Shown here: positions 1-64,000 of the stretch, piece after piece
Numbering within the stretch: position 1 is the first letter of the stretch
Layout: the number at the start of each line of letters is the position of its first letter
NCBI GenBank assembly: GCA_965178125.1
Contig: OZ237758.1
Coordinates: forward strand, 496,001 to 560,000
Origin: Bilabrum cf. latius
Lineage: Eukaryota
Length of the DNA stretch: 64,000 nt
Direction: 5' to 3'
Made by a program: the position numbers and the translations under genes
Notes under the pieces: generated by a model
Database searches by the model: none
The model's input: the letters and a program-made list of their open reading frames with translations, nothing else
Told to the model about the DNA's origin: nothing

Positions 1-3000
1 TGCGACAGGAATCCACATGGCGCACACTGCCATTCGGGTCTGCAAATCACAGTAAATATCAGATGTGTCATTCAAATTCGTGCTGTTGAGCGGCAAGCTG
101 CCGCAGTCAGCATCGAACACAGCGGTCCCGTTCGGCTGCTTCGGCCCTCGAGGCTAGCGGCTCTCCCAATAGGCCTCCCGCCCCAGCAGCGATGCATCCG
201 TGCGAGGAACTTCGATCATTTCGTCCGAGGCCACCTATTTGGTCGTGCAATCTTCGACACCGAGCTAAGCCAGATACACCACTGTCTTAGTTTGCCCATT
301 TATGCTTCCGGTGTACGAATACCCATTTGAGCCTGAGGGATCGAACCGGAGCCGGCGCGTCTCCCTGCTGTACTGCATCTCAGAGTCGAAGAATGCCTGT
401 CCGCCTTCATCAATCTCGCACGAACCTATTAAGTACTAGTACTCAACAGAGTCTTTGCTTCTTGCGATCCGCCTAGAGCCTTGATAATGTCGAAGTGTGT
501 CATCTCGGATGCTCTTATAGACATTGTGCTGTCGGAGCCACCAAGAGGTGAAAGGTTGCGGCACCTAGACCTCTAAATACTCGCAGCGCGCGTCCAGATA
601 GACGACATCATGGTCATTTTGTAGAACACGCTCGCGACTTCGTGGGAACCCGGGTATAATCGGTCTTCGACTATCGGTGGAGGTGGTCGATGGAGTGGGA
701 GTTGCGCTTCTGGTGCTTGTGGTCGATGGAGTGGGAGTTGCGCTTCTGGTGCTTGTGGTCGATGGAGTGGGAGTTGCGCTTCTGGTGCTTGTGGTCGATG
801 GAGTGGGAGTTGCGCTGCTGGTGCTAGTGGTCGACGGGGTGACACTGGGAGTCGTAGACGGCGAAGCAGAGGGCTTAATAGCTCTGTACCTGCACGACAC
901 TTGCATCCTGTCGATCACGGCAGGCACAAACTTGGTCCCGAGGTTAAAGTCGTCCTGCAGACGAGCGTATCGAGCCGCCCGTGCCTCACAAGCCCGGCTT
1001 GGAACGTGCCGCACAACCCGCTAAAAGACTACTTTAACGGTTTCTGCATCACCCGCTCCATCCGCGAGACGGAATCCAAGACTGGCAGCGTTGACAGCCC
1101 CGAGAGCGGGCGCCGGACCCGGTCCAGGCCGAGGAGAAGCTGCAGGCTCTTGCGCTTGCAGGAACTCTTGGACGTAGGTTGCCGTGTTGCTCTGCCTCGA
1201 TTCTTGCGGCAGGTCAGGCGGGCCGAGAATACCGTGCAACGCCTGAGCTCCATCGATGGCCTTGTTCCCGTCCCAGGCTGCCCCAGCCACCGTGAGGCCT
1301 CGAGACACGCTTTCTGAAAGAGCTACCAGAGGGATCTCCAGTTCAGCCGTGCTGCCAATTGCTGGACCAGATCCGGCTTGTGAAAGCACCGTGCTCCCCA
1401 CGGTAAGGGCACTGTCATCGTCCAGCGTAGCGCTGCTGTTGATGGTTCCGGACCGAATCTTCGTTCGAACCGCAGGGACATGCTCTGGCAGAATGGGCCA
1501 CATTGCCAAGGAGTTCGACGATGGCAGGAATTGCCTGTGGTGAGCTGCTCGATGCACAATTTCACCGACTCCAAGACCCAACAGAGCCAGCGCCCCACTG
1601 CCTCGAAGCTGGATAGAACCGCCGCCTTCGTACGGCTGCTAAACATCTCGCTGCTGTGCCAGTCGCCCCAAGGCGAACGGCTCCACGGCAAATCTCGTTG
1701 AACCAGCTGGAACGTGCAATCGCCATGAATTAGCAGCTGCCATCAGAAAACCAACACTTGCGATAGGGTCGCCGAGCCGGGAGGCCGAGCCTCGATCGAA
1801 CGCCATCCGGATTTGCCGCTCGGTATTTAGGCGTGACTGCCGGAAGCTGGCTCGCTTTCCAGTTTGAGTGGCTACTAGCAGGGGCGGAGTGCGGATCATT
1901 AGAGCCGCGGGGTGAACAAGGTAGTTACTCCCGTTCGTAGCAGCGACCACTACTGGCTGGGGAGGTGCACCGGTACTGTTGTCTGACGCAACGACGTGAC
2001 TATAGTCGCGCTATCTCCACTGCATAGCATAAGATGCTGTTGAGCACGGCTCGCCGCCCAAATACGACTGCGACTCGCCCAAGGCCGCAATTGCCCACTC
2101 TGACCGTGCACCAATCGCAGCGCCAAGAAGCGGATTAGTTGATTCATTGTAGCTTGCGAGGAGGCCACGGGTGGTGCTACCTGGACTAGAGCCCCAAGGC
2201 CATACACCACTGTCGATGGCGCTATTTTCTGGCGCCTTTTCTTGCACATAGGAAGACGGTATGTGCACGGCAAAGAGCTGTACCATGCTTGCAGGAACAC
2301 CACTGGCCATCCAGACGGCGCGTTGCATCGGTGCACAGCCACGGTTGAAATCGAGGCGATCGCCACCAGCTGTGGACGCATTGAACCATCGGTGCGTCTG
2401 CTTCAGCATGCAGCCCAGCTCTTCTGCCACATCGTTTGGATGGTAGGCCGGGCCGGCCGCAGCAGCAGACAGGGCAACATCGACTCCGTCGACCCGCAAG
2501 TCATCGCCGCCAGTCGCCGAAAGCCGAATGCGATCCCTCCAGGTCGTGCCCTGGGGAATCGATTGCACTGCGTCGGTGGATGGAAGCGAATCCACCGAGC
2601 TCGCATTGCTGTGGATCGCTGTGAAATAGCCGGGGGCTGCGCCCACCGCTACCGACGCGCCCTGGATAACAGGGCCAAGGACTGAGCGCACTCTACTGGA
2701 AGTCCATTGAGCCCCCTCTGTCTCGCCGAACCGCAGCGGCCCATGGCCCACGTAGGAGCTAGTGATAGAAAACTGATACCATCGGGTGTTGTTGTCTTCA
2801 GCAGCAAGATTCACTGAGCCCACGTCGCGTGAGACGGCTCCTGTCCGCACAGCTGCGAGTGAGCGGACTGCAGCCGTGGCATCCGCGTCGTACAGAATGC
2901 CGGTACCGAGATCGGCGTCGTGCAGCAGACCATGATCCACGCACCCTACGACAGGCAGTGTTGGCTGCACTCGCCCATAGATTGGTATGGACCTACAAGC

Positions 3001-6000
3001 CATCGTGAAAGCAGCGTCCAGAGTAGCGACTGCCGTTTCAGGTGGAACCAGCCGTACCTCCACTTTCATGGGTCTGCTAATCAGAATAGCATCGAGTGCA
3101 GCGTACACTGCAGAGATGCAGACAGACGGGAAGATTGCCTCGCAAACTTCAACGGCAATCGGCTCAACCGGCACACCGCCAAGCGTAGCAAGAAGAACCA
3201 ATCCCTAGGCTACGGAATGATATTCTGTTTGCTAGTGCCCTACGGTTGCTTGGCCTGATGAGCTGGACAGCCAAACGATTGGAGGGGTGCTTGACGAGTA
3301 CGCAAACTCTCCGGCCTAGGCAGACGTCACCACGCTGGCCCAGCTCATGCTGTCTACAGTGCGTCCGTCTATCGCCTGCACAGACACTGGAACGAAACGC
3401 GCCCCACCCATTCCGCTAGCAAGCTCAATTCGCAATAGGGGCGTGTGCCACATCTGCTGCGAATTTAAGTACTGATCCATGCCAGCATCCAGCTGTGGGC
3501 TGTAGCTTGCGTTCGTACTTTTGTGCAGTCTCGATTGGAAGCTGCGCTGCTCGACACTGTACAGCAGCATGCTATCGGTGGACAGCGATGCGTTTACTCC
3601 GAGGGCGCCTGTTCGCCTGGTCCAACCAGTAACCGCAGAGATGTTTCCCGAGGAGCTGCACGCGATGGCCTGCTGCACCTTCGTTGGAACGGCCCAGCGA
3701 GAGTCACTGCTGGTGCCGGCAGCAAGAGTACCATCCGCCGATATGATCTGCCCCTTCGCGAAAACTTCCATGAACTGCTGCCCGTGTGTTTGCTAGGCAA
3801 CGTCTCTCGTTGCGAGGAGTCGGACAGAGATAGCACCGGCGTCTGTGGCCTCCTCCAACTCTGCAAGCGAGGGTGGAGCCACCAATCCACCATCGCACGA
3901 AACGACCAGTTCGATGACCGCATGTCGAACAGAGAGGTCTGGACGATGCGACCTCGCCGACCCAGACCATGACGCCGACAATATTCTGGTTTGCCTGCAG
4001 CTCATGCCAAGAACTGCAGTATCGAGAACCTCGAAGCTTGACCGCAAGTCCAGGCTAGCATCGGTTGGCGTGCCATGCGCGTGCCGCGCGGAGCGGAGCG
4101 AAACGGAGAGATTGAATGAAACATCATCTGCGTTGCACTCTGCGGAACCAGCAGCATCCTAGCCAACTTGCTGTGCTTCTGTGGCATTCGAACCCTTTTG
4201 TCGTGCTTCTGTGGCATTCAAGCTCTCATGCTGCGTTTCTGTGGCATTCCAGCTCTCTTGCTGCGATTCTGTGGAAACTGTGATGTTCCGGCCCCGTTGC
4301 TGTGTTCCCAATAAGCGCGTCTCGTGTTGGACTTGGTTCACGGCCAGGTGGACTTGAGCCGTCGCTACAATTGGTGACAGGCTCTAGGGACTGTCGCCGT
4401 TGAGATGGCCGTGGAAGTATGCCTTCAATCCATACGGCAACACGTCGAGGGTGAGAGAGTGGCTTGTGCTGCTCGGACCAACGAAGTAATTCGGAGTAGC
4501 TACAGCGGAAATAACCACAGTTCCGTTGCGGAGCTCGTTGCTTAGAATTGATCCCAGTACAAAGCGACCAGGATCCGCTCTGGACAAGTTCTGCTGCCCT
4601 CGTGCGAGCGAGGCGGCAGTCTCCATTGTCTCTGCCAAGCCTCTAAGCGAACCTTCGTACCTGGCGATTGTTCCATGCGTGCCAGTGGCTTCCATCGAGC
4701 TTTCGTCGTTCAGGGCTCCCAACTGAACCAAATGAACGATGCCACGATAGGCAGAACTGTTCAATAAACGACTCCTCGGATCGCTCGGGTCATCATCCGC
4801 GAGCGTGGTCTGGCTGCTCGCTGCGACGGCCAGCGTCACGCTGCCTTGTCCACCTTTGTTGGCGCGTCCAACAGCAGCGATCGCCGCTCCGAAGGAAGCA
4901 TCCACGGATGTTTCTTCCAAGCACTGCGACTCGAACGCCTGAACTATGACCCTTCGATTGTCACAAGCTGGCACACCTTCTGGCAGGGGCGCCAGCGGAT
5001 CGATGAATACCTGGTCGTGTCGGACCGATGCGCGAAGCGGTGGCAGCTCACCAGCGTTGCATGAGGCGGAGAGACCGGAAGCGTGCAAGTCACCAAGGGT
5101 CTAAGTCGCTGTGTCCCGGGGTCGCGGATCGACAATCATGCCAACGCTGGGCAGGTGCGTGCTTCCTCGGAACGATGCATCCAGCTGCACTTCGATCAGC
5201 TCTCCCTGACAATGCAGCGATGCTCTGCTGGAGAAAGAACTCTCAATATCATTGGGATCGCTTTTCAACGGTGGACTGGAGCCAAGGGGCGCAGATTCAG
5301 GAATGAGCAATCCCATGTCGGCCGGAGACAGGCAGAATCCAGGGCTGTACTTGCAGTGAGGCTGAGGGCTGACCCCGAGCACTCGCCATGCGGCTACCTC
5401 AGGCAAGTCGTCTAGTGTAGTACCCGGCTGTGCTCTCGAGTACATGGCAGCTGGATCCAGTTTAGTAGCTCTGGCCATGTCCTATCGCGATCCTATGGAA
5501 TGGGGGGTTTGCAGCCAAACGAGTAGAACGGCACCTTCACGACGAGTTCCAGCACCGGGAGCGCCGGCAGCTACTACAGTTAAGGTAGAGCCTTGGCTGC
5601 CTGCGTTATACCTTCGCTCAACTGCCGATATAGAAGCCAAGTTGCCAGCTCTGCTAGGTATCGATGCTGACGTGGTTCGGTTCTGCACGTAGAACCCTGC
5701 ATCAACAGGCAAAGGTAGCCTGCCGAGGTGCTCAGTGGACGCTCCAAGAAGCGATCCAGGCCCAAAAAGGCTGCTGATATCAGCATGTTCACCGCTTTGA
5801 AGCTGGATCATATCCAAATCCACTGACCCTCCATTGCTCTGCTGGGTTAGTTTGGTGCCTACGCCAGGCGCAGCTAGGACCACTGGGTTGGATACAGACA
5901 CCAGGAGTCTCTCCTCGAGGTCCTGTCTCCTCAAAAGGTCCGGCCCCTCTCCCTGTGTCTCATCTGTCAAAGCGGTCATGTCAACCTGTACGGGCTCGCC

Positions 6001-9000
6001 TGCAGTGTTCAGGGCAATCGGCCTGTCAAGGAGGTCTACGACAAAGTCCACGATGCACAGAGCACCTCGCCTACCGCTGCCCGCCCATGCACGCGGTGCC
6101 CCCACAACGAGTCGGGCCTGGTAGACTCTGATCGGAGGTGGGCGCACCAACGTCACGAGATCGCCATCCATGACTTTGGCTAGCATCGAGTACCCGGATG
6201 CGTTCCTTCGAATTCCGATTGGCCCCGCATCGAGTGGTCTTCGGAACGTGCCGCTGAGATGTGGCGGCAGCCTAGCGAACGAGGCACCAAACAGGTCCCC
6301 AGAACCCCAAGCAACCCTGGTCCGGGTAGTTCCTTGAGCGATAGCCTGGTACGGCCTGTTACTTGATATGTCCATGACGGCGCCGTTTGGCAGCAGAGGC
6401 TTGCCGATAGGAGTTATGAATGCTTCCATGGCGTTGTCCTCATCCTCAGTTTCCCAAGTGACCGTGTCAGTCCCACTCGATCCATCCGAGAAGTTGACTG
6501 CCACCTAAGCGCTCATCTTGACCTTCGGAATAGCGGCTATCCGCAGACATCCAGGCGTTCTTGCGCTGCTCCGGTTCCATTGGATCTCTGTCATGCCCAG
6601 TCTCTCTCGCATGACATGACCGAGCATGAAGTAGTTACCATTGTGCCGATTTGTAAAGCCTGTGTCGTGTGGCATGCAACCCACCCCAAGCGGTGCCTTC
6701 TCTATGCGCACTGTCCAGTCTCCATCTTGCGGTGGAGCGCTTAAAGCAGAGCTAGCAGGCAGATCGGATCTAGGCACAGGAGCACCAAAGGCACCAACAG
6801 CGATTCCAGCTGAGAGCGAAGGCCTGCCGCCATTGCTCGGCTCGACCTCGTTGAAAATTGGGAGCTCCCCCTTGCCATATGCGGCAGACTGAGCAATCTA
6901 CGATCCAAAAGTCGAACTTACTGGCTTTAAGTGCACGCTTTGTACCGTACCACGTACGCAGATTGAGTTGTTGATCGATCGAGAAACCGGTGATAAGGCT
7001 GTAGAATTACCGTATGCTTGGTCGGAGTAGATGAAAACTGCCCCCGCAACCACTATCACTGGCTTCGAAACGAACCGCAAGCGCGCGGTCATGCCACCTG
7101 TGGTCCGATCCATGGCTCCTCTGTCGCACATGTACTCCGCTGCATAGATCGCAGTGGAGCCATGAAGTGAGTTCCAATTTGCCCATCCGAAGTGTTTTGA
7201 TTGCCATCCCAAGTCTTGAATTAGCCTGAATGCACCGCCGGAACGCCAAATGGTGCAGCCGTCCAAATCCGGCGGTTCTGGAACCCCGGATGGGTACTCC
7301 AGCGGCTTAAAAAGTAGTCTTGCAGCGTGCACACCGTCAAGGGTGTTTGGACCGCTCGGCGACGACCGATTCGCAAATAACTCAAGCTACCCAGATACGA
7401 ACACAAAGATATCGGACAACGTTGGATTCTTAGTCGTTGTGGGGCCTGAGCCTGGCGTACGCAGATAGAGAGTGTTGGAGGGGGCAGGATCCGGGCACCT
7501 GTACTCCTGCCTCTGGGGTCCCTCCAAATTGGCATGGAGTGAGTAGCAACTGGTCGTCGTGGACCGCCGTGGGTAGTACTACCTGCCGCTAGCCGATTGC
7601 TCGCCTGGTCTAGTTTCCCAACTGGTCTGCACGGATATGCCGCCGTAGGGCGTGCTTGAAGCTGAATAGAGCACGTCAACTCGACGAATCACGTGGCGAG
7701 TGTTGAAGGGAGCGTAGAACTAGTACTGCTAGGACGGCCCGGTTCTAGTCGACGTTGTGGCCTCGACACCATCTAGAAGGTTAGCATCGCTTGCCTGCGT
7801 TTTCCACTCAAGTTGTCCGGATATGTCAGCATACTTCGGAATGATTCCGCTAGACCCAAGTGGCAGCGACAGCGGTCTCCAATCGCCCTCGCGCGCAAGC
7901 AAGTGACCTACCTGTGAGCTATGGGGCTTCGATGGGTCTTGTCTATCCTTACACTGGCTCAGAGCTGTCATTGCCACATTAACAATCAAGGACCCATTCG
8001 TATCAAGGTGGGTGCCGGCTATCTGCGGACCAAGAGCACCGTAGAGACCAGTGCTTCCGCCAGCTGAACGGCCGTCTCGGAGTCCTGACGCCACAGCTCC
8101 GGGCGTCAACCAAACCGCTTGCGACAATCTGGAATCGGACTCGTTTAATGGCAGATTTCCTCCGGCCTCATGATTGGAACGTTGTACCATACCTTGAACA
8201 GGCACGGTCGCCCACTCGGCAGGTGATGCTTGCGCCACTGCTGGAGCCATCTAGGACACCCAGCCTGCTGTGACTGACACTATTGCACCTGGCGAAACAG
8301 TGTGCAAGTACTTCACGGTAACTTGCTGGGAATTTGCGGAATTTGCAGCTGGAACGCCAATGCAAAGGACCTCCAAATGATGATAAGCCCTCCCCAACTA
8401 GCTTTGCCTCCAGCCCGCCTGCTCACACGGTTCCGATCCTACGTACACCCCAAGTAGGGATCCCATCTGCGCTGACGGCTGCATATTGTCGCAGTACTAT
8501 TTGGTAGTAATGTTAGCTCGCTACAGGCTCTAGCACCCCTGCAAAGAGGATCCGGCTGCCAGCTCTAGCCCGCTCCATTTTCCGACATGCAGTCCGGATG
8601 CTATCTCGGCTGGCACAGCCAAACGAATGGCCAAATGACCATCTTTAATTGCTTTCTACGGATGATTACTGCTCGACGACCTGCATTGAGCACGACGAAG
8701 GGTACTCAAACCTACTTGACCGCTCGGTAGAACTGACACGATGCAAGCTTTACTCCTCGTGGCATCCACACCAGGTTCACCTGCCTGCCATTGATCCACT
8801 GAGGCCTTGGTGATGATGGGGTGAAGAATAAACTTATCGAAGAGATTGTGTCCGTAGGCAGGGGCACTCATCATCACGAAGTCGCGGTAGCCCGTTGTGA
8901 GGGATGCGACCCGACTACTTTTCTCGCATAAGAAATCGTTAGCCGGGCTGCTGTCTTCGGCTGGGACTCTGCGCAGCTACACAGGGTGATCACCGGTGTT

Positions 9001-12000
9001 GAAGTTGCCCGCCTTCCACGACAGAATGTCTGAGTCTTCAAAGTACAGAGCCATCGTGCCTGCCTCTGCCACGAATTGGCCTCTACTTGATTCCGTCTTC
9101 GGCTCAGATATCCTCCTGGTTTCGCAGATCACCTGAGCAGGAGCGCTACCCTGGCCCAGCAGCGCGACGGTGCCACTGATGCGAGACCAAACAGAGTACT
9201 TCCACTCACCCGAGGCTATAGCATCAAGCTGCTGTCGGTCAACGACCGTGCTGGACATGCTCTGGTTCCAAGGCTGCATCGAGGAGCCAAGGGCACTGGA
9301 ACGGGTTCCATCCAGCAGTAGCCTGCCGATGTCAGGATTTATCGAGCCTGACACTATAAAAGCATCACGGGATGCAGCTGTTATGATAGACAACGTGTCT
9401 AGACCAGCGATCGAAGAGGGCCCGAGCTGGAGCGGTTTTGAGCTGGATTTCAAGGCACGGCACGCAGCCGCAGGATCGCTGCCTTGAGCTGAAACGTCAG
9501 CAAGCCGAACGCACCTGGTGCTGCTCTCGGTCCCTACCGAGCTCCACAGTTCCGGGCATGTGTGCTAACTATGACGGCCCCGTGGCTTGATGAAACCATC
9601 GAGCGCATAGTCTCCGCCAGAGGAGGCCTGCACTCGGCCCGAGACCAGACCTCTGGGCGGCCCTGGGATCTATTGCGACGACCCTGGTGGGGCCATTACT
9701 TTGTCGACGAGGACAATTCCAACGCCGGTGGGTCGGCTACTGCCGCGATAGCTTGCATTTAGGGTCTCGCTATATCTATTCGCGACGAACGCTGCTGCTT
9801 CCATGGTGCGTGTCCTGGAGTCTACTCTTGCAAGAAGCCCGCCGGCACGACGGCACTACCGAGCCGCGAATGCCCAGCTGAAGGAGAGGGCTGGTGCACG
9901 CATTGAATCTCCAGTGCTATCAATCTCAAGAAGGTCGGATCCGAGCGCGAGGCATCGTTCATGTTTGTCATACGAGTCCGACAGCGCCCATGGGGCACTG
10001 CAGTGCACTGCTGGCGACTCGTCCGCGGCGTGCAGCGCAGCAACCTCTGGAAGTCTGATTGTGGCGATGCTGCTTGATATTGGCTGCAGAGTACTACGAG
10101 CGCACATGAGGCCCTGCGCAGTCGTGTCTCCATCGTCAACGAGGATGTTGCCTCCGCTTGCAAATTTGAGCGAGTAGGGGGAGGACTGTGGTCCATTCGA
10201 TGCCTCATCGAGGGTGGGCGCCTCGGACCACTCCTGCGTCAGCACCGTGCCGTCCTGGGCCACATAGGGATGTCCACCGCTTTGAAATGATACCCCTAGT
10301 TGAGACACATGAAAGTTACTGGAGGTGCCGTGGCTGCTCTCCTCTGTAGTGCGCGGATACCATGGTCTGGCACCATATCCACGGCACTGTCGGTAGTCAC
10401 TCTGCGCCAAATTCGATGATCTGAAACGGTATATCTCCTGTGTGCAGTACTGCGGGGCATCACTATCATACATACTCCAACCTTTTCCGCACAGATCGCG
10501 GTAGAGATGCGATAGCCTGTGAGCGGCCAATCCATCACCTTCTCTACGCGAGTTTACGTCTCCGGATACGTCTCCTAGCAGCTCGATGCTTTGAACGGCA
10601 ATCGGCTGCAATCGCGAGCCAGGAACCACCGCAATTGCGGCACTCAGCTCCAATGCTGTTCCGTACGCTCCCCCGCATGAGTAAACCGCAGTGGTGACTT
10701 GGTCTACGATGCCACCAAATGCAGATGACGATGGTCGACATGGCCGTCGCTGCGCCTTGTCGCCACCAAGGACCCTCACTCGAAGGCTGGCGCCAAGATC
10801 AAACCTACCTGCCGTTGCAGCGGTAATTGCCACGTCAAAGACTAGACGAGCAGTGCCTGTCGCTGATACCAGGCCCCCTGACAGCGCCAAGCTCACAGGG
10901 TACCCGTCTGGTACGATGGTCATGTTCCAGACCGGAAGTCTGAAGTATTCACGCGAAGAATAAATAGAGGGCTACTCGAACGCCTCTACCTCTGTAATAC
11001 GAAGGTTGGTGTCCTGCATTCCTAATGGGAACACAAGCACGATTTCGTCTCCAAGAGCACCTCCACAAAACGCTGAGTAGGCCTCCGCATGCCACAGCGA
11101 TGTCCTGGGCATGGTGCGATCGATAGGAAGCTAGCTTTCTTCGTTTGCAGCAGACATGCGCCAAGCGTGCTCCTTTGGGGTGATGGTAGACGCGTGTTCA
11201 CTGATACTTTTCGGGAAACTACCGCACCTTCTCACGGCTTGCCCGCCTCTCCAGACTTCCACAGCAACATCGTATCGCGAGTCACTAGGCTTGCCATCCA
11301 CATGCTCGAAGTATCTTACCAGACCAACAGGAAATAGACTAGAAGCCATCTTTAGGCGGAGGTGCTAGTAACGCGGCATGTCGCCTGCGAACTGAACCCA
11401 ATTCCCGACGCTGATGTCTCTGTCTCCAAGTGCCAAGTACTGAAGATTGCCCGTGGCTGGCAAGTTGTTCCCATCAGCAGCCGTCTACCAAAACCCGTCG
11501 TCAATGTCCAACGTGGCAAATAGACCGTAATTCTGTGGACTTGGGCCGGCCAATCTCTCGATTCCTTCGTGCTGCATGCTAAGCGAAGTCTCTGTCTGGG
11601 CCACGACGCGAGTCATTAGGCCTTGGCACAGGTCGATCTTCACATCGAAGTGCCCGCCGCCCCAATGGTTTCCACTGCTAGCTGCACGAACGATCAACCG
11701 GACAGCGCATGGCACCTGCTGCTCGGACAAGTCCAGTTGCGGCTGAGCATCTGGAGGCAGTGAGATTCCACCAGTAAGCTGGAAACGATTGTGCCCCCAT
11801 GCCCGCCGCAACGCCCGGCTGGCCCGGGCGGCCTCCACCCAAAGGGCACTCGAGGACGACGTGGTCGCATCAAACTAGCTTCCAACCCCAGTCCAGTACA
11901 ACGTGGTCGTGGTCGGAGCGACTGGTGGGCTGCTCGTCGAAGCACTCGACCGAATGCCTCCGTCGCTGTCTATGTCGACCTGGACGAGCAAAAAGTCACC

Positions 12001-35798: not shown

Positions 35799-35954
35799 TT
35801 CTTGATTGGTTTCTGCAGTTCACACGCTGCATCTTGTAATGACCCCTCCATTGACTTGGGCGCCAGCAGCCTGTGCCTCTCCGGCGCCGCGCATCTACAG
35901 GCCGTGCGGAACCGAATTGCCGTTGCCTGGTGTGGGGGTGCACTTGATTCAACA

Positions 35955-37699
35955 ATGGCCTGGTTTGGAACCTTCATTGCATGTCTGCTGCCCCACCTAT
36001 TGCAAGCAGTGCAAATATGTCCAATCTTGCCACAGCGGTCACTATAGCACGCTGTCAGTCCTGAACGATACGGGATCAACACAGGATTTCTCTCTGGAAA
36101 ATTCGGCCTCCGAAACGCTTCTGTGCATGCTTCGTTCCGGGCTATGCGGTGTGCTTCGGTGGCCGTGTGGTACTCAGACGTAGCTATGGGACTTGGAAAC
36201 GAACAACTATCTCACCGAGGCGCAAGTGAAACAGATCGTTCAGCCGAAGGGAATAGATTGCGGGAAAGGTCTCTCAAACTTTTGCGATGAGAACTGTAAA
36301 TGCATGGAGAAGAACGACGAACGGATCCGAAGCTTCCCACCAAACACCTTCTCTACGGAGAACTTCACGACCGGCTTCCTCCCGGCAATCCCGCTGTGGA
36401 ACGGCCGTGGGTCCGATCGAACGGCCGTGCAAGCGAACTTCTTCCTGGTTGATCCCCAGGATCCGCTCATGACGAAACAGTTCGAAGCACTTAAACGTGG
36501 TGGGATCACTCCGGGCTCCATGCTCGAGGCGGGCAACGAGTTCTTCTTCAACATCTACAGGGCCACCGTGCCCTCTCCCCAGGAGTACGTCCGCCAGGCG
36601 CTGCCCGCGCTGCAGGAGGTCCAAAGAATCCTGCCCGGGCTGCGGTCGGGACTGCTGCTGGGTTCGACTGGGGCGATGTTCTTCCGGCAGCGGATCAAGG
36701 GCAACGAGCGGCACTCGGGCTGGGACCAGGGCGTGATCGGCGAGGTGCTCGCTCAAGGGGAGCAGGCGCTCAATGCGACCGGGTGGGTGGTGCACCTATA
36801 CGAGCTGGACTGGACCTACGCTACACAGAACCACAGCGAACCTTCGGGCTGGAGAGACTTCGCACTCGCTGCACCGGAGGTGATGGTTCGGCTGGGCGCG
36901 GAGCAGTTCAGGAACAGGCAGAGGCAGACGCCGTGGCTGCCCCTGGAGGCATGGATGCTGGAATGGGCGCCCACTCGTCACACCATTGAGCCCATCTCGT
37001 CCCCGGCGGAGCAGTGGTTCGCGAACCTTCGCTATTCCTGGACCCGGGCTCTGGTTCTGGCTGGGTTCCTGATCTCGTTCGAGCACCAGCACGATGTGGT
37101 GACCAGGGCGGACTACGCGCCCGGGATCGATGACCCAGGGAACAAGAACTGGTTCGGGATCGTCGCGCCGCTCAACGAGTCGGCCGCACTCGTCACAGCA
37201 GAGGGCCAGGTGTTCTCCATGATGGCGCATCTGGCCTCGAAAGCGAGCACGATTGCGCCCCTTCTGGCGAGTCCGCCCTCTCCGGCGGGGGGGGGCCTCT
37301 GGCTGTGCCCCGACTGGGTCCTCTGTGGCGGGCGAGCCTGTCTCCGCCGCAATCACGGGTCTTCAGTACGATGACAACGCGGTGCTGCTGCTCAACAGGG
37401 GCTCTGCTGCGCAGCAAGTTGGCCTGAACTCAACGGATCTATGCCGGGGTGCTGGGCGTGCCGGCGGGCGGGATTTCGGAAGCCTCGAGACGGTGGTGCT
37501 GCAGGCACCCGACGCGTCCAACCCCGAGGCCCCGCTGGGTTACCATGTCGTGGACGTGGGGACAGCGGGCGACCCCACGGGCCTGCCGTTCACCGGCCCT
37601 GCTGGTGTGACGAGTGCGAGCGCGTCGTGCGGTGGGTCGGGTGGCTCGGGGGGCGTGCTCGTTCCTGCCTACAGCGTCGTTGTGGTCCGACGGAGCTGA
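35955..37699 (+). pseudogene. Clan GH-A glycoside hydrolase (GH51/GH79-like) with two apparent frameshifts (pseudogene or assembly indels)
   Basis: Signal peptide and VSPERYGIN in the ATG 35955 frame; VLRWPCGT, acid/base motif LEAGNEF, nucleophile-like WMLEW and ALVLAGFLISFEHQHDVVTRADY in the next frame; C-terminal LLLNRG..VPAYSVVVVR in a third frame. Shifts near 36144-36150 and in the G9 run 37287-37295; ends TGA. Confidence 0.6.
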
Positions 37700-51852: not shown

Positions 51853-52014
51853 AACGGAGTTATGCCCATAATATATAGTGCCTTCGTGACTCCCAAACAT
51901 TGTTGAATGAATGGGTAAGATCTATCACAAAATAAAAAACTTGGTCGCAAATATTGTCGCAACTGCAGTGCACTGTCATGTGTTGCAGAATCCAGATTTG
52001 TCCCTCTTTTGTTG

Positions 52015-54420
52015 ATGCGACAATACTACTTCGCATATTTTCTATGCGTACATGTTTTGTGTACCAATGCCACTCTAGTTGTGCTTCCAGGGCCGGACGG
52101 GGCGCTCGTATGGGCATACACTAGCAATAATTCTTCATGCTTGCAGTGCTCTAAGGCCCTGCTCAGAAGTTGGTCCGGAGACCTTGCAAGTCTCCAACAA
52201 TAGAAGCTCGAAGCATGGACAGCTGGGGAGCTATGCCCTACTGGACAAACTAGCAGCTTGGCGGCTTGCCAGGGAGAACATGATCCCATTCACTTGAACA
52301 CATGCAATATGGTGGACCCTTTCGGAGATAGCGGTAACAGCACCGGCTCGAACACGTATATTGGATCCTATGAACTTTCTTCTGCGTGGAAGCCAGCCGA
52401 ACTGGGATCTAGCAGCCGGGATGTCACTGGCACAGCTGCACCTTTGCTCCTGAAGCAGCTGGATTTGGCATCAGCTGGCCTACTGAACGGTAAGGGCAGC
52501 AATCAGCCCTCCATTCTTGCAGCAGCACAGTATAGTGTTGGTTCTGGGGCTGTAGTGACCGAAATCCTGGCCAGGGTCGGCAGTGACAGAATTTCAGCGT
52601 GCGACCTTCTTGGCAGGCTGCTTGCGGACCGCAAGAGCAAATCCGCTCCCGTTAGCTGTCAATCCCATGAGAATCAAGCCTTCATCCTAAAGGCAGACCC
52701 GACTAGTAGTTCTTTGCACTTGCTCGGATCTATGGGGACTATAGCCCTGCTGAACAGGAATGCCCGCAGGGTTGGTTTGTTTACTGCGGAAGCTCCCACC
52801 CACCCTGTTGAAATTGCGCTTGCAGCTCAGATGAGGAGCGTGGCATTTTTGGATGCAAGTGTTGCAATCGGCGACCAGCAGGACCCCGCAAATCCCGAAG
52901 GTGTCCTGTTGGCAGCGCTCTCGACCACTGCGCTCGGGTCCTTGTCGGAAGATCGAAGGCAGCACGCCCCTGCGCCCCACGTAACGGACGGGACCCATGG
53001 AGAGCTGAAAGCTGAGGGCAAGCATGATGGAGGGTTGAAAGCTGGGGGTAAGCATGATTCAATGCCACTCTCGCCAGGCAGCCGCCCACACGCCGTAATC
53101 TCACGAAGGGCGCCGGACCATGGCATGCACCGGAGAATCTGGCTGGACGTCGAGCTGCACGGCATTGCAGTGCACCCCGGGGACCGACTGGTCCTCGCCC
53201 AGCACCTGGATACGACCGCGTACATGGACGTGGACGAGCTCAAGGCCATGCAGAGGGCTGGGTGCTACGAGATTGTGGCTCACAGCGGGCAGGAATCGTT
53301 CATTGACGTGGAGAAGCCAAGCTACCAGTCCAAGCAGCACTGGGTCGTGTTCGAGCGAGAGTTCTCCGCCGGCAGCAGCTCTGGGTCCGTCCTGGGTTCG
53401 AACCCCGGTGGAGATGCCGCCTCCGTTCGGTGCGACGAGGGGCGCACGCTGCCTGGGATCGGAGCTGGCGTGGGTGCCGAGATGCCGTGCGGGTGTGCTC
53501 TAGCGCATTCGAATGCAGGTGGGGAGCAATTCGACGGATCTGTTGGGGAGAAGTCCGGCAGATCTAGTGGTGACAGTGATGGCGACTATGCTGCGGATCC
53601 GAGCAGTCCCACTGCGACTGCACGGGCCACGTTCGCATTCCCGCTTCACCACAGGTACCGCATGCCAAGGACGGGCGAGACATGTGGTCCGAATGGGGTG
53701 CTTAAGAGAGCAGAAGGGGGGGTATACAGGCCACACAAGCTATCAGGGCACCCCAACGCGGGCCACTCGTTCGAAGGTGACTGGCTGTCCCCATTGCTTG
53801 GAGCCTCCAAAGAGTGCACCGTGATGGCGTGGGCGGACAGCCCGGGGATCTGGCTCAGGCAGAGGCTGTAGGGGAAGGAGAGCCAGGGAGGCTCTGATCC
53901 ATAGGATAGCACTGCGGGTCAGGAGTGGGGGTGGGAGTACACCACAGACGGGGGAGGAGGAGGAGGATTGAACACCCAGAACAAGGAGCGCTGGCGGCTA
54001 GTGTGGATTCCTGTTCGGAACGCGGCTGAGTTTAGGCAATACAGGGCGGGTGCAGCTCAGGCGAATTCGAGAGAACCAAGTGGAAGCGGTTTAGTGCAAG
54101 CACTGCCACCAATGCCAGTTTCAGCGGATGGTGGGGAGAAGTCGCTGGGGGTGATTCGCGGGGTGACGTGGGTGGTGGTTGCCGTGGCGTCAGTGGGTGC
54201 CGGCATGGCCATCATCGTGGGGTCTGGGGGCTCTTGCGCGGGCCCTCCGAGGAATGTGAGCGCGGTTGAGGCTCGGTAGGAAGAAGAGGAGCGTGTAAGG
54301 AGGAGCGGGGGCAGGGAGGTAAGGAGCAGGCAGCCTTCTGGTCGGGGGGGTGTTGAGTGGCAGCAGGAGTCGGGGGTGGATTCAGGAGGAGAGAGGTTTG
54401 GTATGCGGCGAAGAAGATAA
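52015..54420 (+). CDS. PIG-X/Pbn1-like GPI-mannosyltransferase I accessory subunit, about 801 aa; 4 in-frame TAG
   Basis: Signal peptide MRQYYFAYFLCVHVLCTNA; GMHRRI, AYMDVDEL, IDVEKP and FPLHHRYRMP resemble PIG-X motifs; C-terminal TM VTWVVVAVASVGAGMAIIVG. First non-TAG stop is TAA 54418-54420; a spliced 3' end cannot be excluded. Confidence 0.7.
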
Positions 54421-54926: not shown

Positions 54927-57173
54927 TCAAGGCCCGAACCGAGCCTTGCCGAACGACGGGCCGTGCTCCTCGCTGCCAGGTACGGCGCTGCTGTCCCTGC
55001 GGTACAGCGCCGGGAACTCGTCCAGCGGTGTGACGAGTGTTACGTCCTACCCGCCCTGGTAGCTGACGCTCGCGTTGTACAGGTAGGCCCACTCCTGCCC
55101 CTTGGGCAGCGAGGGCAGGTATAGCGTCCTGTTGGCGGCGTCCTTCTACAGGACAGGGGCCACCACCCAGTCTGGCCCGAACATGAACTGCGATTCCATG
55201 GCCGCGGTAGGATCCGATGCCTTTGGGTCCTCGGGGAACTGCAGCGCCATGGGCCTCATCATGGGCATGCCGGCCTCGCTGGCGGTCTTGGACAAATCCC
55301 TGATGTACTCGCCGAGTGAGTTTCTCAGGACGATGAGCCCGCCCAGGATAGGCTCGATCTCCTCGCCGTAGGTCCAGACCTCGTTGGGGCCATTGGTGAG
55401 GCCGCACGCGTTGCTGGGAGGCCCGCCCTGCCTAGTGCCATGCAGTCGCATCAGAGGTGAGAACAGGCTGAACTGCATCCAGCGGACGATCAGCTGCTGC
55501 ATGGTGGGGTCCGTATTCGGAGGAGAATTCCTAAAGCCACCCGTGTCTGTGGTCCAGTACGGAAAGCCCGAAGCAGCGATCCCCTGCCCAACGGTCACCT
55601 GCAGTGCGAGCTCCTCAAACGTGCTCACGATGTCACCGGACCAGGTGGTCATCCCGTACCGCTGGGAACCAGCCCAGGTGCTCCGAGAGAGCGCCATGAA
55701 GTCGCCCAGGGCCACACCCGATTTATTGAGGCCCTCTGCCACCATCCGTTGATGCTCCAGCACCCACGCCTCGCCAGACTCCGCCATGGGAGTCCCCACG
55801 CCCGGCATGTATGCGTCAGCGACAACTTTCTCTCCGAAGTGCTCCGGCTCGGATGCGTCCAGCCAGTACGTTTTGATCCCATATCTGAGGTAACCTTCCT
55901 TCATCTTGGAGAAGACGGAAGCGCGCGCTTCTGCAGAGCTGGAGTCATACACGTAGTTGCCGAGGTCGAACAGCATACTCTTCTCCGTGCTGCTGTTCTG
56001 CACGAGGAAGCCGCTGGCGTCAAACTTGTTGAACGAATCCGAGGGGTTGGTCACCTCCGGCCACACGCTGACCATGAGTTCGATGCCCATCGAATGGAGC
56101 TCATCTACCATGCCCTGCGGATCGGGCCAGCACTCGTCGTTGAACCGCCAGTCGCCTAGTGCTGGCCAGTGCTCCCAGTCGATCACGATCAGGCTCACGG
56201 GGAGCTTCCGCTTGAAGTATCCCCTGGCGACATCGAGCAGCTGCGACTGGTTCCTGTACCTGTTCTTGCATTGGATGAAGCCCGTCGCGTAGTCGGGGAG
56301 CATGGGGGGGCGTCCGGTCGCGAGCGAGTACCGGTGCAGCAGCTCGCCGTACGGAGAAGGCAGTCCGCTGCTCCCCGGAGTGGCCGGCGTGGTGGCGATC
56401 CAGAAATCCACCATGACGGTCCCGTTGCTGTACCATGTAAGGCTGTCGGAGGTCAGGTTGGCGAATCCATAGGACGGCATGTTCCAGAGGAAGGCGTAGC
56501 CCTCGCTGGAAAGAATCACCGGTATCGTCTGCTGCCCGCCCTGAGAAATGATGTAGTCCCCAGAATCTTCGAAACGGCCAAAGTATGGCAGGCGTTGCAC
56601 GGTGCCTGTCCTTTGCTCGCCCATGCCGTAGATCCTCTCGTGGTTGCCGTGGCCCTCGAAGGACACCCGCGCGCTAAAAGCACCATCTGACGGGTTCGTG
56701 TACCCATCGGGCACGCCAGCAACCAATGCGGTCTGCTACAATAACTTCTTCTCATCGCTCAGGCGCGTGGCTGTCACTAGCGGTTCGCCGCTGGCTCCGC
56801 GACTTGTGGTAATGCGGAGGTTTCCGACATCTATGGATGGGAGCGCGCTCTCTGACGACCTCTGGAAAAAGAGAGACTCTGGTTTTGCGGTATAAAATCC
56901 AGCAGCAACCTCGGGTCCACCTGGAAGGAGAGCTTGCAACTTCGGGTCCACGATCTTTGGACCGACCCGAACCCTTGCAGCGTCTGGACCGAACGGGTCA
57001 ACCTGGACGTTCCACTCAATTCCAGCAGCATAATTTACAATGACAGCAACTAAAGCAACGCTTATCATTGCGATACGTAGACTTGATGTCCGATAGGGCG
57101 GTTGTGACGGGTAGCGTGCTGTTTTTGCCATGGTTCTGCCCCGGCACTCCACCTCCACTCCTGGAGTTGACAT
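54927..57173 (-). CDS. Secreted GH31 alpha-glucosidase/alpha-xylosidase family protein; 3 in-frame TAG
   Basis: ERIYGMGEQ, IVIDW, WPDPQGMVDELH, YWLDASEPE (nucleophile), RSTWAGSQRY..WSGDI, WTTDTGGF, RLHG, QFMFGPDWVVAPVL, LYLP..YQGGxDVT..PLDEFP. TAG at 56736, 55146 and 55047; TGA at 54927-54929. Start may be ATG 57173, 57131 or 57068. Confidence 0.92.
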
Positions 57174-57680
57174 GGCGGCCACAGCAGGGAAGAAGCGAAA
57201 GAGAGAACGTGAGTAGTACAGACTTGCACCCTTGCTCGTCCTCCTTGCGTTTAGGTGCACTGCTCCGGAGTTTTGACACAGAACTAGTTGCCGCAGCAAG
57301 TGCCGCTGAGGCAGTGGCCTTCGCCCAGAAAGTAGCTAGAAACCCAATCGTTGCGTAAGATGGCTGCTAATAATGGACACATATTCAACATCTGGAGAGC
57401 TCTTTAGTGTGTTGCTCAGTACACGATGCTATCTTGGCTTCGCAGTACCGACCAGTTCAGCGCATCGAAAGGCAAGGTCCTGGAGATTTAGCAAGAATCT
57501 ATGCCAGCAGAGGGACCAGGAACCAAGAAACGACGAACTGTTGGGGAAGACGGCAAAGCCTAGCCCCCTGACCGGCGGCTGTGCTCTCCGCTCCTGTTCC
57601 AAGAAGGTGAGCACCTAGATCCGTACCGTGGCTTGTGTATCGTTCAGCTCATTCGCAATACTCCTGCAACGGCATACATT

Positions 57681-58845
57681 ATGTTACGTACATTCACCAC
57701 TGCAGAGAAGCGCCGCAAGCAACCTTTCGTGCTGGCAACGCCAGCGCCTTCTTACAAAGACCACACTGCCAGAATCGCCAGCGACCACGCCAGAATCCGG
57801 AATGACGCGGAGAAGGAGCTCCAAATCATTCACTAGCACATTAACGAAGGCAGATTAATTCCATTGGTGCAGCCCAAAGGAGAATCGCAAGCATAGAGCA
57901 GCTCAGCACCCAGCGAAGGTGCATTGCCGGGCGGCTCGTAGCTGATTGGAGCGGGCCGACTTGCACTAACTAGCCCCGGAACAAGAGGACAGTCAGGAGC
58001 AGGGACAGATGTGGAATCTCTCCCGGGTGCATCGTCGTCAGCGGCACTGCTCTCGCCGGGGGTCCAGTCCTCCGCTGCCTCGAGCTCATCCTCCTCTGCC
58101 GAAGGCGGTAAAGGAACCTCCGCCGGTGCTTCCTCTTCTTCTTCTTCTTCCGGCCGACTGGACCGTTTTGATCCCCGCGTGACCTCCAAAGAGGCCAAGC
58201 GAAGGGCGCGGCACGGTCTCACGCTCGCGCAGGACCTCAGGGCCGATGCCCTCGAGTAGAGGAGCAAGGCTCTGCAGGGAGAGGTGATCGAGCTGCCCAG
58301 GGGTAAGATGGTCATTTGTTTAATTCAAGCGTGTGCTTTATTGCCGCGTGTTTCCTGCGCTAGATGGTGGATCAATTGCGCCGAATGCGACGACTTCAAC
58401 CAGGCGCATCGCCAGCATCTGCCGCTACCATGTGAATTGCAACCATAAATTGCAACCACGATTCGCAACTACGACTTGCACCGCAGCCAAGGAACTGTCG
58501 CGACTAGATTCGTACCTCGACTTCGTATCGCGCACCTATTACACCACGCCCGAGGCAGGCGATGCCGCCGATGCCTTCAGCGCGGTGAGGAAGAGCACGC
58601 TGGGCCGCCTCAAGAGCCAGTTGAGGACGCCCGACGTGCTGGACAAGTGGTCTCCATACGAAGTGGCGGTGTTCGAAAGCTCCATGTGCGTGATGGGAAA
58701 GCAACCTCACGTGGTGGCCTAGGTGATCGGCACCAAGACCACGTAGGAAGTAATGGAGTTCTACTACCTGTGGAAGAAGTCGAAGAACTACGCTAAATGG
58801 AAGTAGACATTCAAGCCGCCGGGGCAGCCGGCGGATGTGGAGTGA
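57681..58845 (+). CDS. SANT/Myb-like domain protein; exons 57681-58302 and 58487-58845; 7 in-frame TAG
   Basis: DKWSPYEVAVFESSMCVMGKQPHVVAxVIGTKTTxEVMEFYYLWKK is a complete SANT domain only if TAG 58720 and 58744 are read as sense; ends TGA 58843-58845. Confidence 0.82.
58303..58486 (+). other. Spliceosomal intron (184 nt)
   Basis: GTAAGA...CACCGCAG, phase 1 (G+CC), reconciles the two reading frames. Confidence 0.8.
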
Positions 58846-59260: not shown

Positions 59261-60772
59261 TCAGAAGAGGCCCTTTGCCTTCCTCTGGTTCACCTGCTTC
59301 CATTTGGGAAGCTTGTAGAAGTCCTCCTTGCCCATCCCGAACACGCCCTCGAACTCTGCAGCGGAGAGGTACGCCTCCTTTCGGCCCTTGTCCACCTCAG
59401 CGGGTACAGAGGAAGCAGTCAGCTCCTCAAGCGAGAACATAACCCCTTTGTACCCGTCCTGGCCAGCGGCGATCGGGCTGGGGGGTGCCACCGGGGCAGA
59501 TTTCTTGGGCTTGAGACCCGTCTTGATGCCTGCCTTCCACGTCGGTCGCCTCTGCTTCTTCCACTTGACCTTGTGCGGGTCCTAGTCGTCCTTGACGGCA
59601 TCAACCGGCCCTGACTCCTCGGCTGCTGCGGCACCTCCGCCGGCCGAGCCCGCCGGCTTCCAGGCCATCTTCAGAGGCCCCGGTTCCTCGGTCTCTTCTT
59701 CCTCTTCTTCCTCCTCTTTCGAGTCCACGATGGCTTGCTGGGCCGCGAACAGGTTCGTCTTCGCGATGCCCCACTCGGGATCCAGGTCAAGGGCGGACTG
59801 GAACAGACGCTCAGCTCGCTTGTACTTCTTGGCCTAGAAGGCTCCCACGCCGGCGTTCAGCGCAAGATTTTTCCGCTGCTCCTTGCTATCCTCTGCCTCC
59901 TCCTCCCCCTCGGCTAGCGCCTGCGTGAGAGCTTTGAACGACGCCTCCAGAGCCTTGGATGAATCAAAGGGGCGCTCCACCTTCATCAAAGACACGCCGT
60001 ACACGCGCTGGGCCTCAGCGTCGCCGCTGTCTGCCAGCGCGACTGGCTCTACCGCCTTGACTGCGTCTTCGTGCCTGTCGGCAGCCGCGAGGAACGAGGC
60101 CAGCACGACCCGCCGCCTGGCGTGCTCGTGCACAGCGAGAGACTTCTCCATGGTGGCGATGGCGTCCTCCATGCTGCCCTCCTTCTGCTGCTCCTGGCTC
60201 AGCTGTGACAAGCACATGGCGTAATTCTGCTTGTCTGCTCCCTTCAGCTTCTCGTGATGGTTTGCATACTCGAAATCAGTCACTGCGTCTGCCCACTGCT
60301 GCGTGTTTGCTAGCACCATGCCGCGCACTCTAAATGCCTGCGCATCGTCTGCTTCCGCGGCGTCGCACGCACTATTGGCTGCTTCGAGAGCTGCTTCTAG
60401 GTCTCCTTTATCAAGCAGAGCCTGGACCTTGAGCATTCGCACACCTGTCTGGCCTGGCTCGGTGCTATCCCCGATGATTTCGTCCACAGTGCTGCAGCAC
60501 TCGTCGTGCTGCCCCGCTCGCAGCTGAAAGACGGCAAGATTGTGCCTGGCTTCAGCCATATCACCTTTTAACTCAAGTGCTTCCTTCATTGCTGCAATTG
60601 CATCTTCTGTCCGGCTAGCATTGGCGAGGGCGACTCCTTTGTTGAATAATATCGTGTGGCGAACCTCGTCTGGGACGATGGCTAGCGCTTCATCATACTT
60701 AGCGACTGCCTCATCAGCATTTCCGGCCGATAGAAGATCATTTGCCTGTTTGAGGAGTTCTGGGGCCGACAT
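59261..60772 (-). CDS. TPR-repeat protein with C-terminal villin headpiece domain (503 aa); 2 in-frame TAG
   Basis: Multiple TPR motifs (ILFNKGVALANASRTEDAIAAMKEALELKGD; ALNAGVGAFxAKKYKRAERLFQSALDLDPE) and headpiece KEAYLSAAEFEGVFGMGKEDFYKLPKWKQVNQRKAKGLF followed by TGA. Same frame across TAG 59834 and 59582. Confidence 0.88.
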
Positions 60773-61051: not shown

Positions 61052-64000
61052 ATGAGCAGCCCGCAATTCGGTGTGCCCGTATGCCTAGCAAACGACTTGC
61101 ATGCGCTAGCCCGAGCAGGCAATGTCAAGCAGTTTCAGGCAGCCCTGCAATCCACGGACCCTCTTCACTCAGATGAAAAGGGGAAAACACCACTGGATTA
61201 CGCGCGCCTGTACGGCCACCAGCCGATTGTTGAGATAATTCTTTAGCATTGTGATGCAGCTGAAAGTCTTGGAGGGTCCACAGGCGTGCCGGCTCCGCGC
61301 GGATGGCTGCAAAGCCAAGCCCCCGTTGCGATATCCAGGGCGAAGCCAAGTAGGCATCGAGCCCGCGACAGATCGAGCAGGGGCTCTAGTGTATATCGGA
61401 GCAGTATACGCGTATCGCATCGCAGCGGTCGGCCAGCAGCCCCGTCTGCGGCGCTCGACAGCACCACCAGTCGACTGGGCGCTTCATTGAAGGCACTCAG
61501 CTCCAAGTATGCAAAGCAGCAGCATCTGTAGCCAAAGAAAGTTGAAGGCATCGGGCACAGAAGCCCTACGCAGGAAACCACAGCCAGTCACCCGGCCGGT
61601 GTCCGCGGCATGCCGAGCGCGAGCCGATCCGCCTTGGACGCAGACATCATGAACAGCTAGACGCAGCGCATGCTCTCTGGTACTATTCCGGATCCTCATG
61701 GTGTTAAATTGGAGCAGCTCCGCCGAGCAGAGAGGCGAAAGGGCCGGCACATGCGGACGGACAACGCCGAAATCGCGCTGGAGTCTTTCCTCCGAAAGCA
61801 CAAATTGAAGGGGGGCAAGCGGTTCACGCGACAGGAAAAGCTAGCCCTTCGCTCCTTCTTTGATTTTCTTGACGACGACGGCTCTGGCGCCGTGGATGGG
61901 GAGGAGCTCGAGGACCCCTTGTTTTCCACGGGCGTGGTGAGGAACCACAGGGAGCTGCAGGACGTGCTGAATTCCGTGGATCTCGACGGCAACGGAGAGC
62001 TCGATTTCCAGGAGCTGCTCGAGGCGCTGCTCCCCGGAGCTGGTGGTTTCTCCTCGGAAATGTTTGCAGCACAGGTAGAGGGGACCGGGGTGGTGGAAGC
62101 GCAGGTGGCCGCGGCGGGCGGGATGGGAGACGGCCGCAAGCGGATCAAGAAAGGGACGATTCCGCACGACGAGGGCGCCATGAGTCGGGTGCGGCGACTA
62201 CGTTTGCTCGCGCGACAGCGGTCGATAGGGAACAACAAGGGCGCGAACGAGATCGGCAGCCGCCCGGGCACCAGCAGCACCGGCCACTTCGAAAGCGGTG
62301 CGGCTGCAGCGGACCATCATGCCGCGGTATTCAAGCAGCCGCTTCATGATGCCTCGCATGAGGACCAGGACCAGGACCAGGAGCTTGAGAGACCGAGGAG
62401 GGGATAGCTGAGGGCCCTCGCGCATCGGTCAAGGGAGAGAATCAGCCTTAGGCTAAAGGCAAGCAGCAGCTTGGCGAGTCGCGTGGGTGCTTCGAGCTAG
62501 AGGCACCTCGATAGGGTGCAGGAGGAGGCAGCGCAAGAAGCAGAGCGGATCCAGAGGGCAGGCAAGGCGCAGCTGTCGGAGCTTGGGGCACCCAGGGGCG
62601 ACAATGATGCCAGTGGGGCGGGCTTTACTAGCAATGGCCGCGTAAGAAGTCGCAGGACCATCCTGTCAGGGACAGTGGCTGGGCCCGCAGGCTCAGGCAC
62701 AGCTCAGTCGCCTCAGTCTGCGAAGTTTCGGTTCGAGGAGACGGTCCGCCGCGGGCGACTGCTGGACAAGCAGAGAAAGCTAGTGATGGAGAGGAGAACG
62801 CTCAGAAGGAAAGCACGCGCGAGGCTTCAGCTGGCCCAGTACCTCGCGGGTCGATCTGAGGCAGGGGCAAGCATGGAGCCGGGTGACATTCACGGGGCGT
62901 GCCTATCGTTCGGGAAGGGCTTGTTTGAGGTGCCAGTCCCCGGCATGCCCGCGCCTTGGCCAGGGTCGATCCGAGCAGGCACCGGCGCCTCTGGCTCAAG
63001 CACTGGCATGGGGCTTGAAGCGAGCACCCACAGCAACAGAGGCATGAGTCCTGCGGGGGTGGCCGATCAGGGGTGGGACGAGGGTGGTGCCACTGGCAGC
63101 GATGCGGGCTCCATGCACCCAACCGTGGCGCACTCGAAGGCAGAAACGATCGGGCTTGCGTCCAAGCTGGGGAGGGTTGGTGCTCGTGCTGGTGGGGGCA
63201 CTCCAATTGGCTGGGATCCCGAGAACGGTGGCGGCGAAGATGGGGGATCTGAGGATTCTGACGTGTTTGCGGCGAAATTGGGTGGGGGCGTGTCGCATCA
63301 TGCGGTGAGGGCTCGTCGAGCGTCAGTCGTGAGGTGGCAGAACATGCGAGGGGTCCAAGATGAGGGCAGGGAAGGTGGTGTCGATCGGGACCTGGGCCCC
63401 GCTTCAGATACCCCCGGTTTGGACTCTGCTTCGTCTTTGGCCAGGTTGCGGGAGTCAATCTACGGCAAGTACGAGACCCACATTGTTGAGGGAGCCGAGA
63501 CGGGGGCCACGCTATCAACGGAGCACAAGATGGAGCTGCTCCGCTCCATGCCGCGTCCCAAGGGTGCCGATATGCCTCACTACAGGATCGGCACGGTAGG
63601 TCAGCAAGTGCAGAGCTCATTGGCAGAGCTGGCTAGAGTCGGCGATGCGATGAAGGAGGCGAGGAGGGCGGCCATTGTGGGGCATAGGCATGGTGATGCG
63701 AGCAAGCAGGAGCCGTCGGGCGACTTGGACAAGCAACAATCGATGCGTCAATCTGGCAGCAACAGCAGCATTCTAGAAAGGTAGAGCGGGCGTGGCATGG
63801 CTTCAACAGCAGCTCCTTCAGCAGCAGCTCCTTCAGCCAGCTCTGGGCGCACCCAGACGCCCATCCTCGACAGGTGGAACGCAGCAAAAATTGCCAAGAG
63901 CAAGGGCCGGGGAGATAACAAGGCGCGCAAGGGAAGCAAAAAGGATATCAATCGCGCGCATGAGAGGCCAATTGGGCGTGCCACCGGAGATGACATGACG
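61052..64000 (+). CDS. Ankyrin-repeat plus EF-hand pair protein with a long low-complexity tail (3' end beyond the window); 6 in-frame TAG
   Basis: LHALARAGN..GKTPLDYARLYGHQPIVEIILxH (ankyrin); FDFLDDDGSGAVDGEEL and VDLDGNGELDFQEL (EF-hands). The frame stays open to base 64000 except for TAG. Confidence 0.8.

Follow-up and report, generated by a model that had tools for sequence, protein, structure and literature searches.

A GC-rich stretch of eukaryotic DNA in which UAG appears to encode glutamine while UGA and UAA remain stops

Where a genetic code differs from the standard one, UAG and UAA are nearly always reassigned together, and only a few cases are known in which UAG alone has changed its meaning, namely Iotanema, some ciliates, one rhizarian and Scotinosphaera. 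The 64,000-nucleotide stretch of DNA presented above (the whole of which is hereafter called the window, with positions counted from its first letter) carries 13 long genes that appear to use such a code, with TAG as a glutamine (Gln) codon and TAA and TGA as the stops. The codon table as such is already known from Iotanema spirale, from Protocruzia and two phyllopharyngean ciliate lineages, and as NCBI table 15. In I. spirale (Fornicata; Panek et al. 2017, PMC5304391), the three assignments are the same as in the window, UAG was never seen terminating in the genes described, and Gln was found at 22 of 28 hyperconserved UAG sites. However, the gene ends given in that report (UAA 104 and UGA 15, of 119) differ from those of the window (TGA 9 and TAA 2; Fisher p = 2.6e-6), and this stop usage excludes Iotanema itself as the source of the window, which is also GC-rich (rich in guanine plus cytosine). 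The ciliates in which UAG alone is reassigned (two phyllopharyngean lineages and Protocruzia tuzeti; McGowan et al. 2024, PMC11687900) likewise read UAG as Gln and keep UAA as a stop, but in that account UAA is their most used and UGA their least used stop, whereas the window is TGA-dominated and has a GC content of 0.55-0.64. A ciliate origin was rejected on GC content and stop usage, and both features fit the view, put forward in a first-pass annotation of the window, that its gene style is not ciliate-like.

Other described codes are more distant. The code 15 of crAss-like and other gut phages (NCBI table 15; PMC9523058) has the same TAG=Gln table as the window, but the phages described there reside in standard-code bacteria, whereas the genes of the window are eukaryotic cellular genes, one of them with an intron. 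Reassignments of UAG alone to other residues are reported for Rhizaria sp. exLh and for TARA phyllopharyngean genomes (leucine, Leu) and for Scotinosphaera (serine, Ser) in the accounts of PMC5304391 and PMC11687900; these codes share with the window the uncoupling of UAG from UAA but differ in the residue. In the codes that read both UAA and UAG (UAR) as Gln, listed in PMC11687900 for hexamitin diplomonads, Streblomastix, ulvophyte algae, Amoeboaphelidium and many ciliates, a stop has become a Gln codon as in the window, presumably via a mutated tRNA-Gln, but UAA has also been converted, whereas in the window TAA occurs in frame in none of 19,415 codons and ends two genes.

The window is best explained as nuclear DNA of a compact, GC-rich and intron-poor eukaryote in which UAG is read as glutamine and translation terminates at UGA (mostly) and UAA only, a reading to which a probability of about 0.88 is given. 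That TAG is read through is evident from the frames themselves. In the window, the release of TAG alone produced stop-to-stop frames of 9402, 1889, 1690 and 1025 codons, followed by shorter ones; with all three stops kept the longest frame was 672 codons, and with TAA alone released it was also 672. When TAG is taken as sense, the window resolves into the 13 genes. Codons were counted in a curated set of 12 genes (19,415 codons), and a SANT-like gene was counted separately in two pieces. The curated genes contain 117 in-frame TAG codons (~6.0 per 1000) and are free of internal TAA and TGA; the SANT-like pieces contribute 7 and 3 more, giving 127 in 12 of the 13 genes, in line with the earlier count of more than 120; the sole gene without TAG is ATG16-like. 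The largest frame, a giant open reading frame (ORF) on the minus strand, contains 79 in-frame TAG, 0 TAA and 0 TGA. Because the two other frames of this ORF contain 38 and 41 TAA and 135 and 207 TGA (173 and 248 for both codons together), the probability of its being empty of TAA and TGA by chance is ~10^-75 or less.

The gene ends point the same way. Of the 11 complete genes, nine end in TGA, two in TAA (35796-35798 and 54418-54420) and none in TAG, the same tally as in the first-pass annotation. Three of these ends, all TGA, are confirmed by homology: that of the GH31 gene coincides with the ends of two orthologues in a three-way codon alignment, the alignment of the GH59 gene to a solved galactocerebrosidase reaches within 7 residues of the gene's end, and in a third gene a villin headpiece identified by Pfam sits at the very C-terminus with TGA directly after it. 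All five gene ends in two contigs from relatives (L001 and L002) are TGA and none is TAG. In addition, the bases that follow in-frame TAG show no difference from those that follow CAG and CAA (p = 0.25). By these frame statistics and homology-confirmed ends, TAG is a sense codon, and TAA and TGA are stops, as had been claimed.

For the residue, glutamine is supported as the best reading of TAG by alignments to homologous sequences. Of the 10 TAG columns covered by close orthologues in environmental assemblies, 7 have Gln opposite TAG, encoded by CAG wherever the nucleotide sequence is known. The GH31 codon alignment of the window, L001 and L002 includes seven columns with TAG in at least one sequence; four of these have CAG in other sequences, one of them with CAT in the third sequence, and in another of the four TAG is common to two sequences and CAG is found in the third. 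When 1200 residues of the giant protein were searched against the full library, 12 matches were obtained, and the three window TAG codons covered by fragments with identities of 87, 85 and 71% all face Gln there; two fragments stop at window TAG positions and one at a window CAG. Over the first 16 residues facing TAG, Gln has the highest likelihood, its margin over the runner-up being 4.2 log10 units under BLOSUM62 and 9.7 under empirical frequencies taken from the same alignment. The deficits relative to Gln, from BLOSUM62 to empirical, are 6.5-14 for Ser, 4.2-14.5 for glutamate (Glu), 5.3-9.7 for lysine (Lys) and >11 for Leu, and neither Ser nor Leu faces TAG in any of the 16 cases.

More distant homologues agree in part. 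The six TAG sites quoted in the first-pass annotation (44234, 55047-55049, 38316, 30494, 61244 and 58744) are all correct, and its placement of TAG at Gln positions in conserved domains holds for two columns: in the HFxQRWN motif of a PX-type phospholipase D (PLD; HFA-TAG-RWD, 44234), 87 of 105 matched homologues have Gln and 14 Glu, and in the GGQ motif of GH31 (GG-TAG, 55047-55049) Gln is the commonest residue (43 of 120). Together with the CAG codons and Gln residues of the close orthologues, these columns bear out its assignment of TAG to probable Gln. It does not extend to the second informative PLD site (44849), considered below. In the GH31 family alignment, the mean share of Gln is 0.19 in TAG columns, 0.32 in window CAG/CAA columns and 0.026 in other columns. 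Alignments to solved structures are strong for GH31, GH59 and PLD; those for GH20 place the TAG sites in inserts, where they are uninformative on the residue.

The code is not confined to the window. A search with the GH31 protein turned up a protein from a metagenome, with 67% identity, that stops exactly at a window TAG and whose contig is L001. The ORFs of L001 contain 8, 0, 1, 2 and 4 in-frame TAG and L002 contains 4; their GH31 proteins are 63 and 76% identical to that of the window, respectively. Since both contigs combine in-frame TAG with TGA ends, at least three related organisms share the code. More fragments at 68-87% identity are found in other public assemblies, including giant-protein orthologue fragments (71-87%) in several of them, and an ATG16 search, dominated by bacterial WD40 proteins, gave one relative at 68%. 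GH31 is the sole gene shared between L001 and the window. The closest named GH31 and PLD matches are from Balamuthia (41%) and from yeasts, plants and amoebozoans (40-45%), and a quick PLD tree placed the window beside two other sequences and close to the PLDs of amoebozoans and Naegleria, with long branches, a single-gene result that is too weak to rely on. An aphelid source was rejected, as aphelid PLD groups with fungi in this tree and TAA is not sense in the window.

Because the window is GC-rich and ends its genes mostly with TGA, its organism matches none of the known UAG=Gln eukaryotes. A literature text search turned up no published account of such a lineage, although subscription journals were thinly covered by it, so that this is not proof of novelty. 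The balance tips slightly towards an undescribed eukaryotic lineage of at least three related species, GC-rich and with TGA as the main stop, in which UAG passed to Gln independently of fornicates and ciliates. If so, UAG should formerly have been a common terminator in a GC-rich genome and not a vanishing codon, and the case would speak against a simple capture of the codon driven by AT pressure. The UAG-only lineages described in PMC5304391 and PMC11687900 have genomes in which UAA is the favoured stop; a GC-rich lineage ending its genes with TGA would thus independently test both the loss of UAG alone by the release factor eRF1 and the need for codon rarity before reassignment. In practice, standard-code gene callers truncate the proteins of this organism at every TAG. 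The relatives are present in the database only as fragments ending at TAG positions, and therefore the genomes and metagenome bins of the group are mis-annotated.

The genes of the window, and the intron considered next, are as follows.

1..28188, minus strand: giant ORF, >9,396 codons, open at the window start; 79 TAG.
28907..30811, plus strand: alpha-L-fucosidase with a PAN-like tail (Pfam); TAG at 29024 and 30494; TGA end.
31197..33137, plus strand: ATG16-like WD40 protein (Pfam, and a protein atlas for ATG16); 0 TAG; TGA end.
33513..35798, plus strand: protein without a Pfam family; 2 TAG; TAA end at 35796-35798.
35839..37374, plus strand: protein with a weak Alpha-L-AF_C match; 1 TAG; TGA end; start uncertain.
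37848..40682, plus strand: GH59 galactocerebrosidase-like protein; coding TAG at 37893, 38034, 38157, 38316 and 38328; TGA end.
39271..39444, plus strand: spliceosomal-type intron in the GH59 gene; 174 nucleotides (nt), GTGAG...CAG, in frame.
41081..46696, plus strand: PX-type phospholipase D; 6 TAG, of which 44234 and 44849 are informative; TGA end.
46852..51852, plus strand: GH20 hexosaminidase fused to an endonuclease/exonuclease/phosphatase domain; 7 TAG; TGA end.
52015..54420, plus strand: PIG-X/PBN1-like protein; 4 TAG; TAA end at 54418-54420.
54927..57173, minus strand: GH31 alpha-xylosidase-like protein; TAG at 56738, 55148 and 55049; TGA end.
57360..58845, plus strand: SANT/Myb-like gene in two frames (57360-58448 and 58324-58845); 7 and 3 TAG; TGA end.
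59261..60772, minus strand: TPR protein with a C-terminal villin headpiece; 2 TAG; TGA end.
61052..64000, plus strand: ankyrin and EF-hand protein; 6 TAG; open at the window end.

Contigs from public sequencing runs were compared with the window over 37400-57300 (19.9 kb). Those of three runs (X5, X6 and X7) join 39270 to 39445 in the GH59 gene, skipping 174 nt with GT..AG ends, whereas contigs of a further run (X1) keep them. The skipped segment begins with GTGAG, has a pyrimidine run and CAG at its end, and matches a 59-residue insert relative to the solved galactocerebrosidase (GALC). TAG 39279 lies inside this intron and is thus non-coding. As this is the one GT..AG joint away from contig ends across the 19.9 kb, introns appear to be rare, and as the contigs of X5-X7 join across the intron, these runs may be transcript-derived. 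The X5 contigs cover all 22 coding TAG of four genes (GH59 5, PLD 6, GH20 7 and PIG-X 4) with 0 differences, and the persistence of TAG in intron-less contigs is evidence against its editing or removal. Their ends lie near the gene bounds, although contigs cannot show where an RNA starts or ends and allow no inference on the length of untranslated regions. Runs under three different organism labels carry near-identical sequence over the region compared, and X1, X5 and X6 also carry contigs 90-99% alike over part of GH31 (55161-55749), which suggests a second allele, a paralogue or a strain.

By analogy with other lineages, UAG in this organism would be decoded by a tRNA-Gln with anticodon CUA, and its eRF1 would have lost recognition of UAG while retaining that of UAA and UGA. 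Such a mechanism is proposed because it is established in other UAG=Gln lineages, as set out in PMC5304391, where CUA is given as the sole anticodon that pairs with UAG yet not with UAA and as one base away from that of tRNA-Gln(CUG), and where an altered GTS motif is described in the eRF1 of Iotanema, which carries a T32G change.

Several points weigh against the reading of UAG as glutamine with UGA and UAA as the only stops. The window covers only 64 kb and 13 genes, and eight of the 11 gene ends are defined solely by the first TGA or TAA met once TAG is read as sense. Among the GH31 codon columns, three of seven are variable (AAC/AAA, GCC/GAG and GCT/GCT) and uninformative; the 16 residues facing TAG are not fully independent, since most columns give two. 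At PLD 44849-44851 (VLR-TAG-AGGWS, in the motif VQxLRS..WS), Ser occupies the column in 77 of 78 matched homologues, so that TAG there marks either a genuine replacement of conserved Ser by Gln or a sign that decoding is ambiguous; judged by Iotanema, one discordant site of this kind is not unusual. No tRNA was found by ARAGORN in the window, L001 or L002, and an eRF1 gene is not among the genes of the window. Finally, the identification of runs X5-X7 as RNA is a guess, and X5 is labelled 'probably DNA'.

A dual TAG, read as Gln inside genes and as a stop at some gene ends, would depend on context, as is known from Condylostoma and Blastocrithidia. The eight unchecked ends leave room for it, and in the PIG-X gene a TAG lies 46 codons upstream of the TAA, just past a membrane span, but the X5 contig over that gene extends 50 nt beyond TAG 54277. 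With all three homology-confirmed ends at TGA, none of the five ends in L001 and L002 at TAG, and the base after in-frame TAG resembling that after CAG/CAA, a dual role is unlikely. A sense assignment to another residue, such as Glu, Lys, Ser or Leu, has precedents in Scotinosphaera (Ser) and a rhizarian (Leu), and besides the Ser column of PLD there are two GH31 columns of mixed composition, at residues 146 (K, A, R, Q, E) and 676 (E, Y, T). All four residues, however, fall behind Gln by at least 4.2 log10 units in the orthologue likelihood, Ser and Leu face TAG in 0 of 16 cases, and the HFxQRWN column is mostly Gln, which makes another residue very unlikely. Pyrrolysine and selenocysteine were rejected, as TAG faces Gln and TGA is never in frame.

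The idea that in-frame TAG codons escape translation, through introns, pseudogenes, assembly errors or RNA editing, draws on the TAG at 39279, which does sit in an in-frame intron, and on the SANT-like gene, where the frame change makes another intron likely. It has an extremely small chance of being correct, since only a single such joint was seen in 19.9 kb, TAG codons fall within the aligned conserved blocks HFxQRWN and GGQ, three organisms either have TAG in common at these positions or exchange it for CAG, intron-less contigs retain them unaltered, and a 28-kb frame without TAA or TGA is incompatible with a decayed gene. It is just as improbable that the DNA is non-nuclear, i.e. from a phage, giant virus or prokaryote whose code reads TAG as Gln, as phage code 15 does. 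The very high coding density (~0.94 of the window by ORF span) and the genes for xylose isomerase, alpha-xylosidase and xylulokinase, which stand in an operon-like row in L001, would suit such a source, but the PX-type PLD is 40-45% identical to fungal, plant and amoebozoan PLDs, ATG16, PIG-X and villin headpiece proteins are encoded, the GH59 gene has a GT..AG intron with a polypyrimidine tract, and no tRNA and no Rfam family were matched in the window.

Among the remaining features, the giant protein gave no Pfam family match and no internal repeats at E <= 1e-3; lectin-like and PAN-like cysteine patterns were noted in it by eye. Of the domain names given in the first-pass annotation, ankyrin narrowly passes its Pfam cut-off (21.6 bits against 21.1), whereas ricin-B (22.6 against 29), PAN (PAN_4; 23.4 against 27) and SANT (Myb/SANT; 14.8 against 24.4) fall below theirs. 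The second piece of the SANT-like gene carries TAG at 58720, 58744 and 58804, and its frame overlaps the first at 58324-58448; from this switch of frame, a second intron is likely (or a frameshift). The ORF at 58396-59244 on the minus strand is probably spurious. The GH20 and endonuclease/exonuclease/phosphatase domains form one protein of 1,666 residues. The gene arrangement is very compact, and between 28189 and 61051 the spacers between ORFs measure 40-718 bp and, at a GC content of 0.40-0.64, are less GC-rich than the genes. In L001, a xylose isomerase gene, the GH31 alpha-xylosidase gene and an FGGY xylulokinase-like gene on the opposite strand are adjacent at 2263-10034 in an operon-like arrangement; this xylose-use cluster sits in a contig of eukaryote type, and the GH31 gene of the window has different neighbours.

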